Shown one piece after another: positions 9,117-37,282 of a stretch of 64,000 nt of DNA; position 1 is the first letter of the stretch, and each line of letters starts with the position of its first letter. The notes beneath the pieces are model-generated. The model made no database searches, was not told the DNA's origin, and was given only the letters and a program-made list of their open reading frames with translations. The stretch is from a virus. Its lineage: Duplodnaviria > Caudoviricetes. The DNA is taken from positions 1-64,000 of IMG/VR virus record IMGVR_UViG_3300017569_000030; one strand, written 5' to 3'. The translations under genes and the position numbers were made by a program.

Positions 9117-9138
9117 AAATTACATAAGTTAATATTTG

Positions 9139-9227
9139 TAGCCCATGTAGGAATCGAACCCACCCCGCCGTCCTCAGAAGACAATACAGATTTAGAGTCT
9201 GTCCGTGCAACCATACACCAATGGGCT
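9139..9227 (-). tRNA. Amber suppressor tRNA (anticodon CUA) with long variable arm
   Basis: AGCCCAT/ATGGGCT acceptor, GTGT-ATGGTT-GCAC D arm, ACAGA-CTCTAAA-TCTGT anticodon arm, variable stem TTGTCTT-CTG-AGGACGG, GTGGG-TTCGATT-CCTAC T arm, A73; 89 nt. Confidence 0.92.
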
Positions 9228-29623: not shown

Positions 29624-31558
29624 ATGATTGATACGAAAATAAGACAATAGGGCTTAAAAGCCGATTATGCACCTGATACAACACACAAGGATGTTATTTA
29701 TCTAACTACAGATACAGGTGAAATTTATTTTAATGGAGAAACTTTAGGAATATAGATAGAAGGAGAAGGTGCAGAAAACCAAATCTTAGTTTACAATGGC
29801 GGAACAAGAAAAGGTAAATGGGTTGATGCAGGAGATATATTGGAATTAAAAGATTATGTTTCTTATGGTGTTCTAGTAGATGAGTCGATCTCTGATCCTC
29901 ATCTAACTAGAACTGGAAACTTGTCTTTACACAGATCTTTACCAGTTCAATCACAATATAAGGGTTGTGTTGTTAAAGACAATAAAGTAGTATATTACTT
30001 AGATGAAGATGACTGGACATATAAAGAAAATGGTAATCCTAGCAAGGGATATACAGAACAACTTTCAGTTTTAGATGGAACTGATGGGGATGTCTGTGTT
30101 GAAATACCTTAGTTTTATGGATATTGTTATGACTTAGGTGATGGCAAATGGGATGTTCGTATTTCTTTAACTAAAGTTTCAGATGATTGGTTTGAAATAC
30201 CCCACATGTATTGGGGCGCATACAAAGGATGTATTGATAGAACCAGTACTTATAAAGCTAGAAGTGTACATAATACTACTGCTAACTTTAGAGGTGGATC
30301 AAATAGTCCTACTTATGATTATTTACTAGAGACTAATCCATTCTTCTCTCATTTAGGTAAAGCATCGACTGGTTTTACTCGCCCTCAATGGCGAACTTAT
30401 TGTATTAATAATGGTGCACAACCTACCAATTATGAATATTATAAATGGGTAGTATATTGGGCATTTGTAATTGAATATGCTAACTTTAATTCTCAAGAAG
30501 CGGTAAATTCAGAATTAACTGATGAAGGCTATCATCAAGGTGGATTAGGTTATGGTTTAAGTGATTCAAATTCTGTTAGTAGTACAGGAACTTATGCAAC
30601 AATACCTTGTGGATATACTAACAGTTTAGGAAATCACTCTGGAGAGGTTAAAATTGTTACTGATTCTTGTGATCTGAAATATGGTGTAGATTCTAGTATT
30701 TATAAATGGTATAGTTATAATGGATGTGTTTAGCAATAGACAACTGTTGAGACAACATGGGATGGAGGTAGTTGTGAGAGTAAAAATCTTCATATAACAT
30801 ACTTAAATAATACTACTAATATGTAGTTATATAGTGACAACAATGATGCAGGAACTAGATATTACAGTTTTACAAGTGTTCCTACTGATTGTACTATTAC
30901 TTTTAGAATAGATGGAAGCACATTAGCAGATCAAACAGAATATAATAAAGAAGAAAATGGTGATACTTATAATGTAACATATCTAGTGGAATGGGGTGTA
31001 AATAATTCTAGAAAAACAATACATTTTGAAGGATATAAAGGAGATACGGATATATACTTCTATTATCCAGGTAATTATTCAACAAATGATCCTGTAGTTG
31101 CTACTACATTAGCAGCTGTTACTGGAGCATGCCCTAGATATAGAGGAATTGAAAGTCCCTTTGCTGAAATCTGGGAATTTCTAGATGGTTGTATAGTAAC
31201 TTATGATACAGATTCAAAGCAAAATAAATTATATACAAGTCTAGAATGTCCATATTCTGATACTATTAGTGATTCTGATTATAGAGGAGATGTTTCTAAT
31301 AGCGGCGGCTTTGGTAAAAAGCTTTTAATGGGTTCTAGGGCTGATTTTTTCCCTGTTACTACTGGTGGAAGTTCTAGTACTTATACTTGTGATAGTTTAT
31401 GGGTAAATACTAGTGCCGAATTGCGCCTCTTGGTCTCTGGTGGGCGCGCGGTCTACGGTTCTTCTTGCGGTCTCGGCTGCTTGGATGCGTACCGCGGGTT
31501 GTCGTACTCGCATGCCGTTATCGGCGGTCGGCTCTTTTTCCTTTCGGTCGGGGCTTGA
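29624..31558 (+). CDS. DGR target 1, receptor-binding/tail-fibre protein with C-terminal CLec-type VR (code 15, 644 aa)
   Basis: DPHLTRTGN, W..VIEYANFNSQ, PRYRGIESPFA, VR1 at the C-terminus. Confidence 0.88.
31426..31556 (+). repeat. DGR variable region VR1
   Basis: 131-bp copy of TR1 with about 24 mismatches at TR adenines and one at a non-A position. Confidence 0.95.
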
Positions 31559-31609
31559 CTACCTTGAGACATACACTTAAATATTTCTAGTTAATTTTAA
31601 AAATAAAAA

Positions 31610-31740
31610 CCTCTTGAGCTCTGGTGGGAACGCGAACAACAGTTCTTCTTGCAGTCTCAGCTACTTGAATGCGAACAACAGGTTGTCGAACTCGAATGCC
31701 AATATCAGCAGTCAGCTCTTTTTCCTTTCAGTCAGGGCTT
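31610..31740 (+). repeat. DGR template region TR1
   Basis: AAC/AAT-rich counterpart of VR1, upstream of the RT. Confidence 0.95.
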
Positions 31741-31860
31741 TTATGGTTATTATGAAATTCTTTTTATTAATGAAATTAACTATGCCACTAGGCAAAAAAT
31801 TACGTATCTAACGGCACATTAGTAAACTATATTGAAAGTGTGCTACAACAAAAGAATATC

Positions 31861-32976
31861 ATGAAAAGAATTGATAATTTATATGATAAAATTTGTGATT
31901 TATCAAATATTATAGATGCCGCAGCAAATGCTGCCGAAAACAAAAGTAAATAGTATGGAGTACGAATGTTTCTGAAAAACTCCTTTTAGAATTGTATTAA
32001 TTTATCTGAGTTATTAAAAAAGGAGCAATATAAAACTTCTCCATATAAATTATTTACAATATATGAACCAAAAGAACGTCTATTATATAAATTGCCATTT
32101 TATCCAGATAGAATTGTTCATCACGCAATAATAAATATACTTGAACCAATTTGGATGAAATTGTTTACACGAGATACTTATTCCTGTGTTAAGGGAAGAG
32201 GTATTCACGGATTAGTAAAAAAGCTAACCAAAGATTTACGATATAATGTTGATGAGACAAAGTATTGTTTAAAATTAGACATTAAAAAGTTTTATCCAAG
32301 TATTGATCACGATATATTAAAACAGATAATACGTAGGAAGATCAAAGATAAAAAAGTATTAAAATTATTAGATGAAATTATTGATTCTGCTGAAGGTGTA
32401 CCAATTGGTAACTATTTATCGTAGTATTTTGCCAATCTATATTTAACTTATTTTGATCATATAATCAAAGAATAGAAAAGAGTAAAATATTATTATAGAT
32501 ATGCAGATGATATAGTAATATTATCCTCTAATAAACAAGAATTACATGAGTTACTGACTTTTATTAAAGAATATCTTTGGAATGAATTGAAATTAAAAGT
32601 TAAAGAAAACTATTAGATTTTTCCAGTTGATAAAAGAGGGATTGATTATGTGGGATATGTATTTTATCATACTCATGTTTTATTAAGGAAAAGAATTAAA
32701 CAAAATATCTTAAAAGCTGCGAGAAATAAGAATATCAAATCTCTTAAAACATATAAAGGTTGGCTTAAATATTGTGATTCTAAACATTTAATGCAAAAAA
32801 TATATAAATTATCTGGATTAAATTTAGATAATTGGAATGGCAGACAAGTTAATAGAATTGAATTAGATGGAGGAATAATTAAACATATACATAAAATGAA
32901 AAATTATTATAATATAGATTTCGTTAAGAATAACAAATCATATTATACAAAAGTTAAGAAATTATGGTTAAAATAA
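31861..32976 (+). CDS. DGR reverse transcriptase (code 15, 371 aa)
   Basis: EPKER..PDRIVHHA, YCLKLDIKKFYPSI, GVPIGNYLSQ(TAG)YFANLYL, YRYADD, NYQ(TAG)IFP, GIDYVGY. Confidence 0.95.
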
Positions 32977-34742
32977 GACAAAAAGGTTTAAAGGCTGATT
33001 ATAAACCAACTTCTACACATAAAGATGTAATTTATATTACAACTGACACTAATGAAATTCTATTAAATAATTAGCCTTATATTTTAGATATTGATGATCC
33101 TACTGAAATATTATCAAATTAGCATTTAGTTTTAGCTAACACTGGAAAAGGAGTTACAAAAGGTAAATGGGAGAATATTTCAGAAATTGATCCAAAGCTA
33201 TAGTAGCAATTATTAGATGAATACGCTTATGGTGTTGAATGGAATTTTGAAACATCTTCTGACCCGCATTTAACTAGAGTAGGTAATCTTACAATGCATA
33301 AGACACTTCCTATTTAGTCTAAATTAAAAGGATGTGTTGCACAAGCAGATCAAATTATGTATTGGCTAAATGAAGAAGATTGGAGATTCAAGAAAGCTCC
33401 CACGACTCTTGCTGATCAAACTCTTTCAGTAGCCGATGGAGTTTATACTATTGTTAATGATGTTTTCTCCACACTTCAATATGAAAACCAGTATATAAAA
33501 GTTAATGATATAGCTTGTAAAGTTACAGCCATAGATACAACAACTTCAACTGCAACTCTTTCTCCAGAAGAAGATATTGAAGCAGGTACTTATGATGTAG
33601 AACTTGGTGCTGTTCTTAACGGATATGATGGGACAGTACGAGTATATATCCCTGCCTTCTATATTAAATCAGTATCTGAAGATACTGTTAGACAGGTATG
33701 GTTATCAACAGTTAAAATAGATGATACTTGGACATACTAGCCTTCAATTCTAGTTGATGCATATAGATGTACAGTACTTAATACCGTTCCTACAGACTTT
33801 GGTTATCTCTCTACACTTCCAGTAAATAGTGCTATTTCTGTAGTGAATGTGAAAGATTACTGCCGTGGAGGCAATAATCGAAGTACATATGACACTTACC
33901 TTACAGACGATCCAAATAGAACTGATTTAGGCAAACCTCGTACTAATATAGGTAGATCTTCTATGAGGACTTATGCACAGAATGTAGGGAACTATATGAT
34001 GTCTTATGATGAGTATAAGAATATATTTTACTGGTTATATGTAGTTGAATATGCAAACTTTAATAGCCAAGAGGCGTATAATGCAGTTCTAACAGATGAT
34101 GGATATAAACAAGGTGGATTAGGAAATGGAGTAACAACCTGGGGTTATACATAGTGGCAGTATTATAACAATGCATGTCCTCTTACTCCTTGTGGATATG
34201 GTAACAAACTTGGAAATGGCACAGGTGTTATTGGTTTAGTAACACCAGAATTTATAAGTGGAACAAGTACAGTTGCTACTCATACCTTTTCAATGCCTCG
34301 TTGGAGAGGATTTGATAATCCATTCGGAGATATTTGGACAAATCTAGATGGCATTATAGTTGACAATGATGTAGATAATCACGCAAATAATATGTGCTAT
34401 GTATATACTTGCTCTGATCATACTAAGTGTGCAGATACTATTACTTCTGATTATATTAAAACAGGTGAACAACTATATTCATGTGGATATATTAAAACAT
34501 TTGATTTAGGAGATGCTGCACATATTATTCCTAATGCTGTAGGTGGCAATACTACATAGTATATTTGTGATTATAATTGGGTAAGTAATAAGAATACTAC
34601 TTTGAAGACGGTGATTGTGGGCGGCGGCGCGTATAGCGGTGCTATTGCTGGTCTCGGCGACTTCAATTCGGTTAATGCGGTCTCGGCTGCTTGGGCGATT
34701 GTTGGCTTTCGGTCGGTCTCTTCCTTTATGTCTGTTGTCTAA
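32964..34742 (+). CDS. DGR target 2, paralog of target 1 (code 15, 592 aa)
   Basis: Same N-terminus (KIRQKGLKADY..KDVIY.TTDT), DPHLTRVGN, YVVEYANFNSQ, PRWRGFDNPFGD, VR2 at the C-terminus. Confidence 0.88.
34611..34740 (+). repeat. DGR variable region VR2
   Basis: 130-bp copy of TR2 with 15 mismatches, all at TR adenines. Confidence 0.95.
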
Positions 34743-34842
34743 TGGATGGTGTAAAAAGGATAGTGTAAAAAGAGTAAAATAATATTTAAGGAAAATAAAA
34801 TAGTATAAATAATATAGGAAAATAGGTGTTTTCCAATAAAAC

Positions 34843-34888
34843 CGAAGAAAGCGGATAGGAGTACCCAATCTCCTATCTACGCCCTTCG
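34843..34888 (+). other. Hairpin between VR2 and TR2
   Basis: cgaag..gcg-gataggag-tacccaat-ctcctatc-..cgc..cttcg. Confidence 0.55.
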
Positions 34889-34963
34889 TAGGAATATATC
34901 TACGACATAAGACAGCTGGAGTGATAAAAAAGTTGTTTTATTGTTGCACAAAACACAATCAAA

Positions 34964-35093
34964 GTGATTGTAGGCAGCAACGCGAATAACAGTGCTAATG
35001 CTGGTCTCAGCAACTTCAATTCGAATAATGCAGTCTCGGCTGCTTAGGCGATTGTTGGCTTTCGGTCAGTCTCTTCCTTTATGTCTGTTGTCT
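34964..35093 (+). repeat. DGR template region TR2
   Basis: A-rich counterpart of VR2, followed by the same TGCCACTWGGCAAAA spacer motif as TR1. Confidence 0.93.
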
Positions 35094-35260
35094 TTTTGAA
35101 AAATGTGTTTTATATTTTTAAATTTTTGTAAGATATATTTCCTTGCCACTTGGCAAAAGATGACATAAAGACCTCAATTTTGAGGATGAATCTGTGTTAG
35201 TAACGTAAGTGAATACTCGGTATTACACTCTTTTCAGTAAAAAATAATTTAAATAGATAT

Positions 35261-35884
35261 ATGAAGAGGATAAACAATTTATATTCTCAAATATACAAAA
35301 CTAAAAATATTTTCCTAGCTGATAAATGTGCTAGAAAAGCTAAGAGAAATAGTTATGGAGTAAAAGATATAACTTTTAAATATGAAATTCCAATTAATGG
35401 CTCTGCAACAGGTGAAATTCCAAATGATGTAACAGCATCAGTTCCAAGATGGAGAGGTTTTGATAATTTCTTTGGGGATTTAGAGACTAAATTTAATTAT
35501 TTATGGGCAACTAATAAAACAGAAGATGGCAAAACTCGTATTACTGATATTTAGGGTAATTATTATACAGTAGATTCTGGTTATGGTCCTGTTAATTCTT
35601 TTTATTTAGGTAAAACAGCAGAAATTATTCCTAAAGCATGTGAAGATGAGGTAAGCAGTAATACTTATACTTGTTTATGTGTAAATTTTTCGGACGGCGA
35701 TCTTAGCATTTATTCTAATATTGAAGCTTCAGTATTTCTCTTTCCAACATCTTCCCATTACCTCGGTATAGTCTTTTATTAGAATAAATATGAGGCTTGT
35801 ACTCGTAATGAATATGCAATCGGAGAACATATTTATGATACTTGTCCAGTTTTTACTTCTTATATTGAGTACGTAGAGCCATAA
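35261..35884 (+). CDS. Chimeric ORF: N-terminal 35 codons of a DGR RT fused to a target-like domain (code 15, 207 aa)
   Basis: MKRINNLYSQIY..SYGVK resembles the RT start MKRIDNLYDKIC..QYGVR; then VPRWRGFDNFFGD and SSNTYTC as in the targets. Confidence 0.75.
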
Positions 35885-35905: not shown

Positions 35906-36619
35906 ATGTACACAGCAATAAAAATAAATTCAATAACTAAACCAGATACTTTTATTAATTTAAATAATGGAATTTGGTATTATAACTTTAATATTACAGA
36001 AGAAACTGTAACAGTATATAATGAAACAGGAGAAGATAAGCAAACTAGATATACTTGGGTTCAAGTAAGAATTAAAGGTACTCCAACTCTTGAAAAATGT
36101 TAGGAAGCTATACTTAAAGCATTTAAAAATGAAGATGGAAATACTCTTTATTCTCTTCTAACTATTGATCGTACCTCTACTGATCAAATAGAGGATATTA
36201 TATATAATATTAAAGTAGATTTTGGTCAAGAAGTAGCTTTATCTGAAGTTGATCAAGCTAAAAAAGATATTACAAGGAAAATAAGTGAGTATGATACTTC
36301 AACAAATGTTAATTCTTTCTTTCTAAATGGAATACAAGTTTGGTTAGATAAAAGTACTAGAGTAGGGTTAATGAACTCACTTACTATAGAAAAAGAAGCA
36401 GGTAAAACTGAATCTACTTTGTGGTTTAATAATATTAGTTTAACAATTAATATAGAAGCTGCCATGTAGATGTTGAGTTCTTTGGAAATATATGCATTAG
36501 AATGTTATAATCAAACTGCTACACATAAAGCTGCAGTTGAAGCTCTTACCACTGCAGAAGAAATAAATAATTATGATTATACAACTGGTTATCCAGAAAA
36601 ATTAACATTCTCAATCTAA
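35906..36619 (+). CDS. DUF4376-like tail-fibre-associated protein (code 15)
   Basis: YDTSTNVNSF..WLDKSTRVGL..LEIYALECYNQT..H..YDYTTGYPEKL. Confidence 0.75.
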
Positions 36620-37086
36620 TGTTTTCAACTATATGCTTAATTTTATCCTTTTTAATCTGGGTAAGTTATATCATATATGTATATGTTAAATATAAACCAG
36701 ATAGTATTTCTAAAAGTTATTATTTAACAAAAAATAGAAATACATTTACTTGTTGGATTATATTAATTTCTATTTTAATATTTCCAATATGGGTAGAAAT
36801 AAGCCCTGTAAACTTTTAGTTTTTACCATTTTTATCTATTATTTCTTTAATAATAGTTGGTGTATGTCCGCGTTATTTAGAATCTGATAGAACAATTCAT
36901 ACTGTTGCTGCAATAGTAACTTGTGTATTGTCTATTATATGGAATATATTAATTGAACTCTATTTTATTCCAATAATTTTATTAGTAATTATAGGAGTAT
37001 TATATTTATTATCTGTTTCAGATACATTTTTTTGGATTGAATGTAGTGCATTTTTAAATATCTACCTTTCAATTATACTTTACTAA
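36619..37086 (+). CDS. Multi-pass membrane protein (code 15)
   Basis: Several hydrophobic segments; PDSISKSYY. Confidence 0.7.
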
Positions 37087-37115
37087 TCCGATCTATTTTT
37101 AGGTCGGATTTTTTG
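37086..37115 (+). terminator. Intrinsic terminator
   Basis: atccgatcta-tttt-taggtcggat-tttt. Confidence 0.75.
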
Positions 37116-37282
37116 TTTTTAACAGTTATTAACATAATCTGTCTTGGTTTTGTAAAATTAATGTAATATATTTACGTCATACAATTTTGTTACAAAATTG
37201 TTACACTATGCATAGTAGATATATAAGATTAAATTTTTAGTATCAGAGATAAGTTATGTTTTAATAATTCATAATTAAATTT

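Follow-up and report, generated by a model that had tools for sequence, protein, structure and literature searches.

A tandem diversity-generating retroelement with two template repeats and one intact reverse transcriptase in a virus related to crAss-like phages

To our knowledge, the mechanism of diversity-generating retroelements (DGRs) is known almost entirely from the Avd-dependent, one-template Bordetella system. The BPP-1 DGR has the order mtd-avd-TR-brt, TR being the template repeat, and its synthesis of complementary DNA (cDNA) is primed by the spacer (PMC6182149, PMC5703328). The DGRs of crAss-like lineage 3, of which that of crAssphage LMMB is an example, lack avd and have the order target(VR)-TR-RT, in which VR is the variable repeat and RT the reverse transcriptase (PMC7290462); most zeta and epsilon crAss-like phages show the same avd-less arrangement (PMC12386605, PMC11054128). 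Among zeta phages only Lera and ct1yV3 have Avd; they possess one RT and three TR-VR pairs, of which only TR1-VR1 is purely A-specific, the others having 3 and 10 non-A changes and being possibly extinct according to the authors (PMC12386605). Stenotrophomonas sp. SKA14 has one RT and two TRs (PMC6642488). Here we describe a DGR locus at positions 29624-35884 of a 64,000-nucleotide stretch (the window) of the virus record IMGVR_UViG_3300017569_000030, in which two VR-TR-spacer modules stand in tandem with one intact RT (RT1). We consider it likely that RT1 serves both templates in trans and that two receptor-binding proteins are diversified independently, the copying of TR2 RNA by RT1 and the roles of the spacers and leader being what we infer from sequence.

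Two templates and one intact reverse transcriptase

The window comprises positions 1-64,000 of a linear record of 81,471 bp, judged about 49% complete and with a GC content of 30%. With TAG read as glutamine, the locus has the order target1(VR1)-TR1-spacer RNA-intact RT1-target2(VR2)-TR2-spacer RNA-207-aa open reading frame (ORF), and all of its elements lie on the (+) strand. Target gene 1 (29624-31558) encodes a tail-fibre-type protein of 644 residues, and VR1 (31426-31556) occupies its 3' end, running up to the stop codon. TR1 (31610-31740), which has 30 adenines in a codon design rich in AAC, AAT, AGC and AGT, lies 53 bp further on, the distance also given in an earlier note on this DNA. 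Target gene 2 (32964-34742) encodes 592 residues and similarly ends with VR2 (34611-34740), which runs up to its stop codon; an intergenic leader (34741-34963) separates it from TR2 (34964-35093), which has 26 adenines and one in-frame TAG. Both TRs follow the usual AAY/AGY pattern, in which the adenines fall on the first two positions of the codon. VR1 and TR1 differ at 25 sites, 24 of which are TR adenines and one a G/T mismatch (hypergeometric P 1e-19), and VR2 and TR2 differ at 15, all of them TR adenines (hypergeometric P 5e-13), in agreement with the roughly 24 A-specific changes and the 15 changes, all at A, that the earlier note had reported. Its claim that each target has a private template also holds, since TR1 and TR2 are clearly different sequences, with 76% identity over 50 nt only. 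Likewise, the spacer motif that it had seen after both TRs, the 15-nt TGCCACTWGGCAAAA, has exactly two copies, one at 31783 and the other at 35144, where none would be expected. We found no further A-biased repeat pair in the whole 81-kb record. A TR adenine that precedes G appears as G in the VR in all 17 cases in TR1 and TR2; over the RT clade (121 TR/VR pairs from loci L003-L083, L-numbers denoting the loci and contigs used for comparison), this is so at 94% of 355 such sites, compared with 17-38% G for other 3' neighbours. Either misincorporation that is biased by sequence context or strong selection in favour of Gly (AGY to GGY) could explain the pattern.

RT1 (31861-32976, 371 aa) is the only intact reverse transcriptase. 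It matches RVT_1 (2e-20) and has both the DGR-type motif 4 GxxxSQ (as IGNYLSQ) and the catalytic YxDD (as YADD); its gene contains five in-frame TAG codons. A second RVT_1 domain was found in no frame of the record, and each of five related genomes, of which three are complete, contains just a single RT and a single spacer RNA, both adjoining the target. By tblastn, RT1 is 50-56% identical to the RTs of cr52_1, cr7_1 and LMMB, and this kinship, together with the target(VR)-TR-RT order, would make the locus a 'lineage 3' avd-less DGR of the crAss-like type. At the place of a second RT, downstream of TR2, is the 207-aa ORF (35261-35884). Its start codon and first 35 codons (35261-35365) are the remnant of an RT gene (RT2), 46% identical to the N-terminus of RT1, and they are followed in frame by a lectin-like C-terminal fragment (35366-35884) of a third target paralogue. 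The earlier note was thus right about the order of the elements; its RT remnant is one for the first 35 codons, the rest of the ORF being target-like. We rejected the idea that RT2 is split by an intron, as no second RVT_1 segment is present in any frame of the record.

Avd forms a four-helix bundle, is found in about three quarters of DGRs and is required in BPP-1. Searches for it (PF05635, TIGR02436) gave no match in the 81-kb record, whichever frame was read, nor in the five related genomes, three of which are complete, and neither cassette of the window has an ORF between VR and TR. The earlier note's statement that there is no avd-like ORF is therefore borne out, as is its finding of a single intact RT; its framing of the absence as out of the ordinary was overstated, because it is the already known norm for crAss-like lineage-3 DGRs (PMC7290462, PMC12386605). 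An ORF of about 125 aa (phrog_11581/phrog_19665) lies between VR and TR in 27 of the 72 loci that have a TR (L008, L015, L020-L024, L036, L037 and others). It resembles, by eye, the small 139-aa DGR target of L009/L011, which has its own TR and spacer there. This ORF was rejected as a divergent Avd that Pfam had missed for the present phage: it has no PF05635 match and no homologue in the record. By inspection, its consensus is not like a four-helix bundle.

The reading of TAG as glutamine rests on several observations. Standard table 11 breaks the region of the locus into short ORFs; treating TAG as a sense codon increases the coding density from 63% to 99%, and long ORFs appear, those of the locus existing only in this form. 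ARAGORN detects an amber suppressor tRNA with the anticodon CUA (9138-9227, (-) strand), which is needed for translation of RT1 and both targets. Finally, the TAG codons of RT1 align with invariant Gln across about 80 homologues. Codons 188 and 252 (32422-32424 and 32614-32616) are TAG at invariant Gln, and one of them encodes the Q of GxxxSQ, which stands opposite an invariant Q in 78 of 82 homologues. RT1 can therefore be made only when the suppressor tRNA is active, and hypermutation is thereby coupled to that part of the infection, probably the late one, in which the code is altered. The nearest database relatives of the record are crAss-like phages, which also supports the recoding, and the closest larger ones are TAG-recoded genomes of 170-176 kb, which fit the zeta crAss-like group as described (PMC12386605). 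By its sequence, the phage fits a gut-type, zeta-crAss-like virus in which TAG encodes Gln.

Variation of both variable repeats among natural strains

The comparison of strains rests on assembled contigs from other metagenome samples, which carry the same locus at 94-100% identity and were found with a table-11 fragment of the chimeric 207-aa ORF. JGI samples that contain the phage are 3300029965, -66, -67, -68 and -76 and 3300017492, -499, -520 and -585. Exact-match scans of viral contigs with 36-mers of TR1 and TR2 found none, a search of viral contigs with RT1 gave no match, and a metagenome scan with target 2 returned only relatives of 60-62%. Every contig that reaches the site carries the chimera, those found through a fragment of the downstream gene orf237 included; the truncation of RT2 is common to all, and no intact RT2 was seen. 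VR2 is present as four alleles in six contigs, differing almost only at sites that are adenines in TR2. The strain of the window is identical to L096 in cassette 2. Compared with L092/L095, it has no difference in 1,014 nt of leader, spacer RNA and chimera and two A-to-G differences in TR2, and VR2 differs at 13 of 130 sites, every one a TR2 adenine. Between L086 and L087 there is no difference in the 1,527 nt that follow VR2 and contain TR2, and their VR2 sequences show 15 differences, 13 of them at adenines. VR1 is present as six alleles in eight contigs, which differ mainly at TR1-A sites. TR1 itself is identical in the eight other contigs save at position 9, its spacer RNA shows no differences and RT1 0-1. 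All other strains have A at that position (31618), so the G of the window is derived, and this explains the single non-A mismatch of its TR1/VR1 pair. RT1 is intact in six of the seven other contigs that cover it.

Both VRs diversify at A sites in natural strains that are all without RT2, and because the VR2 alleles differ at TR2-A sites in strains whose RT2 is always truncated, cassette 2 is active without an RT of its own. The earlier note had named an invariant VR2 as the mark of a fossil, and VR2 is seen to vary; its proposal that one RT serves two template RNAs draws support from this variation without RT2 and from the sole RVT_1 domain of the record. The templates also differ between lineages at non-adenine positions (18, 63 and 89 of TR2), and the VR2 of each lineage carries the base of its own TR2; homing is therefore later than the divergence of TR2. 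The cassette 2 spacer RNA varies by 0-1 differences among strains. The mirroring of TR2 bases in VR2 speaks against the idea that the VR differences reflect ordinary diversifying selection and recombination with no retrohoming, which we regard as barely credible. Such processes would find an example in patches of strain differences that cluster in target 2 outside the VR (33863-33899, 34100-34179 and 34482-34521) and in a patch of the L090 chimera. However, the patches outside the VR follow no adenine rule, whereas in three comparisons the VR differences coincide with TR adenines at 13 of 13, 13 of 15 and 16 of 17 sites. The patches of target 2 look like mosaic recombination or ordinary diversifying selection alongside the DGR.

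The second possibility that the strains address is that cassette 2 is a freshly orphaned fossil, whose VR2 alleles date from the time of an intact RT2 and whose truncated RT2 allele was spread by recombination. The chimera and spacer RNA are nearly identical among strains (0-5 differences in about 790 nt), compared with 7-11% divergence in target 2 and the downstream gene orf237, which fits a recent recombinational sweep, and the 35-codon remnant is still close to the family consensus. We nevertheless hold a fossil to be unlikely. Pairs of strains share 1.0-1.5 kb of identical sequence, TR2, spacer RNA and chimera included, and differ at 13-15 VR2 sites, so the diversification of VR2 postdates the common truncated allele, unless the truncated allele was repeatedly imported. 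In addition, the chimera stands in every contig that reaches the site, and TR2 and VR2 have no non-A mismatch, compared with 10 in the decayed pair of L085. In L085 (7257-8963) a frameshift breaks off the RT after some 259 codons, and TR and VR have 26 A and 10 non-A mismatches; to judge by its sequence, this locus is a decaying DGR and a natural example of an inactive cassette.

Several observations weigh against the service of both templates by RT1, which we continue to prefer. In L086/L097 (contig Ga0315757_1000070), codon 127 of RT1 is changed from CGA to TGA (window position 32239); this stop is the only RT1 difference (1/1116 nt) and should switch off the sole RT. The strains are mosaic, with divergences of 0% in the chimera, 0.1% in RT1 and 7-11% in target 2 and orf237, and recombination could have moved VR2 alleles, or the truncated RT2 allele, between lineages. 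The record being about 49% complete, a second RT could lie in the remaining genome or in the host. RT1 falls outside the subclade of L080, L085, L003 and L060, to which cassette 2 belongs, and the helix P2 of the cassette 2 spacer RNA differs in sequence from that of cassette 1.

Two further features of the strains concern the templates and the assemblies. The templates evolve at adenine sites: L092/L095 have G for the A of the window at positions 83 and 105 of TR2 (35046 and 35068), both of which are A-before-G sites and one of which turns the in-frame TAG into TGG, and the TR2 of L086/L087 has four extra adenines. The adenine content of the TRs is being tuned, and with it the choice of codons that can vary. 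The contigs of L092 and L095, from different samples, both start at window position 34599, 12 nt upstream of VR2, as would be expected if heterogeneity of VR2 within a sample breaks the assembly.

Spacer RNAs and the origin of the two cassettes

Each TR is followed by a structured spacer RNA. Sp1 (31776-31847), between TR1 and RT1, has a P1 hairpin (GCC..GGC), an A-rich strand and P2/P3 around UUAGUA..GAA; Sp2 (35137-35224), in cassette 2, belongs to the same family and has an inserted hairpin of 16 nt. We collected 80 loci with related RTs and aligned 68 spacers lying between TR and RT. Their common elements are a P1 hairpin (GCC-loop-GGC), an A-rich strand, P2 enclosing UUGGUA, a P3 hairpin and GAA, and nine of the ten predicted pairs show compensatory changes in this alignment. 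A covariance model (R1), built from 55 spacers of other loci and including no sequence of the window, gives Sp1 46.3 bits (E 5e-9) and Sp2 44.2 bits (E 1e-8), where genuine spacers outside the training set mostly score 40-69 bits (range 23-73). These two are its only significant matches (E<0.01) in the window and the whole record. A weak match at 37057-37129 on the (-) strand, just past the downstream gene orf155, was rejected as a third spacer (15 bits, E 0.08) and is probably due to chance. Sp1 reaches 37.5 bits with RT-18 of Rfam (RF03021; gathering threshold 41.3) and 33.3 bits with RT-17 (RF03020; threshold 40.4), and Sp2 25.4 bits against the Rfam RT motifs. In their predicted shape and position, the spacers resemble RT-17/RT-18, at scores below the threshold for membership.

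Sp2 retains all of the invariant nucleotides of the spacers. The leader upstream of TR2 contains a strong hairpin (34854-34877; fold z-score -3.8) and then the motif TAGGAATATATCTACGA (34889-34905), which is common to the window and its relatives; L080, L003, L060 and L085 have the conserved block TAGGAATACATCCAACGAAA with a hairpin ahead of it, the sequence of which differs between them. The leader probably serves as a terminator and, for the TR2 RNA, as a promoter or 5' element. Since Sp2 keeps the invariant nucleotides and the leader hairpin and motif match those of zeta-type relatives, the cis elements of cassette 2 are intact.

The usual state in the other loci is one spacer RNA, adjoining its RT; two spacer RNAs with one RT are found in 3 of the 85 loci of the clade. 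L009 and L011, which are about 90% identical to each other, each have a second VR-TR-spacer module with no RT. Between the two, the TR of this module differs at 1 of 94 sites and the VR at 10, 9 of which are adenines. These loci, together with the spacers, are pertinent to the proposal that another RT, in the rest of the phage genome or in the bacterial host, copies TR2 and that RT1 serves TR1 alone. The linear and incomplete state of the record leaves room for such an enzyme, and by phylogeny RT1 and cassette 2 are not cognate partners. Yet each of the three complete and two partial relatives makes do with one RT and one spacer RNA beside its target, Sp2 belongs to the RNA family of Sp1 with the invariant nucleotides kept, and L009 and L011 also combine an RT-less TR-spacer module with a single neighbouring RT. 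We judge the involvement of another RT to be improbable, somewhat more so than an orphaned fossil.

Synteny identifies which cassette is the resident one. In L080, a complete genome of 175 kb, and in L085, the order is target-TR-Sp-RT-orf237-orf155, and in relatives orf237 (tail-fibre-like, DUF4376; phrog_1807 tail fiber) and orf155 directly follow the RT. Both genes are found after the chimera in the window (35906-37086) and are 55-57% identical to their L080/L085 counterparts. The closest complete relatives have a single DGR target, and target 2 is its orthologue, with 61% identity to that of L080 (60-61% for L080/L085) and 56% to that of L003. With the N-termini of the RTs of relatives, the RT2 remnant shares 55-65% identity, the value for L080 being 60%. 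As target 2, the RT2 remnant, orf237 and orf155 are syntenic with L080/L085, we conclude that cassette 2 is resident and that its RT was destroyed. Target 1 has its best outside matches in 'tail protein' genes of crAss-like phages (L078 47%, cr7_1 44%), and a quick tree makes RT1 sister to all nine other crAss-type RTs (Shimodaira-Hasegawa-like approximate likelihood-ratio support, SH-aLRT, 95). Because target 1 is nearest to other crAss-like targets and RT1 lies outside the L080-type subclade, cassette 1, which the closest complete relatives lack, is on sequence grounds the additional one. A simple tandem duplication was rejected: the targets are 35-47% identical (in three blocks), RT1 is outside the subclade and synteny marks cassette 2 as resident.

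The N-terminal 35 residues or so are 74% identical between targets 1 and 2, and the alignment of target 2 with its L080 orthologue begins only at residue 62, which suggests a common docking site on the virion for the two fibres. For the C-terminal 268 residues of target 2, an AlphaFold2 (AF2) model from a 52-row alignment has a mean predicted local distance difference test score (pLDDT) of 95.4; an earlier model, from a nine-row alignment, had a pLDDT of 32 and was unusable. The top match of the C-terminal model in the PDB is TaqVP (5VF4, probability 1.00); Mtd and formylglycine-generating enzymes (FGE) come next. The model thus points to the variable-protein fold of DGRs (C-type lectin/FGE-like). 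Searching the PDB with a sequence profile gave no match, and Pfam has no family for either target. The family of the lectin-fold domain comprises 2,098 representatives, and the domain is C-terminal in nearly all of the 150 best matches.

In the chimeric ORF, the approximately 172 codons after the RT part resemble the C-terminal domain of the targets. They align with these domains from the PRWRGFDN motif onwards and are 37% identical to the C-terminus of the L078 target; the VGG..AGLG..GFRS scaffold of the VR is missing, as is a TR. A search of a large protein database with the whole 207-aa chimera gave no match, whereas its table-11 fragment did match. Since the frame is open in all strains, the chimera may be an expressed protein under diversifying selection. 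The L090 chimera differs from that of the window at 14 positions, all within 35679-35832 (codons 140-191), with 13 nonsynonymous changes and 1 synonymous. These codons correspond in position to the lectin-fold VR, and the record holds no matching template.

Proposed mechanism and comparison with known systems

RT and TR function in trans in experimental DGR systems. We suggest that module 2 (target2/VR2, leader, TR2 and Sp2) was resident and that its own RT gene was destroyed, leaving 35 codons fused to a lectin-like fragment. Module 1 (target1/VR1, TR1, Sp1 and RT1) would have been added, with an intact, deep-branching RT of the same clade. Each TR would be transcribed with its own structured spacer RNA, and RT1, translated only under the amber suppressor, would bind either TR-spacer RNA and make cDNA from the TR, misincorporating nucleotides at adenines. 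Each cDNA would then replace its cognate VR by homology, and the ligand-binding tips of two tail-fibre proteins would be diversified independently. An extension, for and against which we see the case as evenly balanced, is that TR-plus-spacer RNAs are portable modules usable by any RT of the clade and that the foreign RT1, which came in with a cassette of its own, took over TR2-Sp2 after RT2 was lost. Compatibility between RTs and modules would then be set by a few invariant spacer nucleotides and the shape of the spacer, and the locus would be a natural case of a multiplexed DGR, independent of Avd, in which two tail fibres are diversified side by side.

The locus and its natural series of strains provide a minimal system free of Avd: a single RT appears to handle two different template-spacer RNAs, and to one of these it is not the cognate enzyme. 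Locus and strains together make testable which features of the spacer are read by the RT, whether TR-spacer modules are interchangeable and how phages gain more diversified receptor-binding proteins, and they are relevant to engineered multiplexed DGR mutagenesis. A TR with no adjoining RT should not be dismissed as a fossil.

Avd-less architecture and DGRs with several TRs have been described before; the earlier note's statement that multi-target DGRs normally reuse one TR was overstated, since more than one TR is on record (PMC12386605, PMC6642488). What is notable here is the non-cognate RT, the RT::lectin chimera and the clean evidence of natural activity. BPP-1 resembles the locus in the adenine mutagenesis from TR to VR at a lectin-fold, receptor-binding C-terminus and in the structured spacer RNA between TR and RT; it has one TR and one VR, whereas the locus has two templates, a different family of spacer RNA, TAG recoding and no Avd. 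The Rfam motifs RT-17/RT-18 share with Sp1 and Sp2 the overall hairpin layout and the place directly 5' of an RT gene; the spacers score below the gathering thresholds and are described much better by the clade-specific R1. L009 and L011, of the same RT clade, likewise have one RT and two TRs and an RT-less module with its own spacer RNA and a VR that varies at A sites. They differ in their standard code, a GC content of about 47%, a second target of 139 aa and the lack of an RT remnant. With Lera and ct1yV3 the locus has in common several private templates and a single RT in a zeta crAss-like phage. Those phages, however, encode Avd and an RT of another lineage, and both pairs of the present locus are clean and variable among strains. 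The closest agreement is with the crAss-like lineage-3 DGRs, in gene order, absence of Avd, a tail-fibre target, a C-terminal lectin-fold VR and an amber-recoded RT. Unlike these, the locus combines two tandem VR-TR-spacer modules with one RT, its resident RT has become part of a chimeric ORF, and there is population evidence for the activity of both modules.

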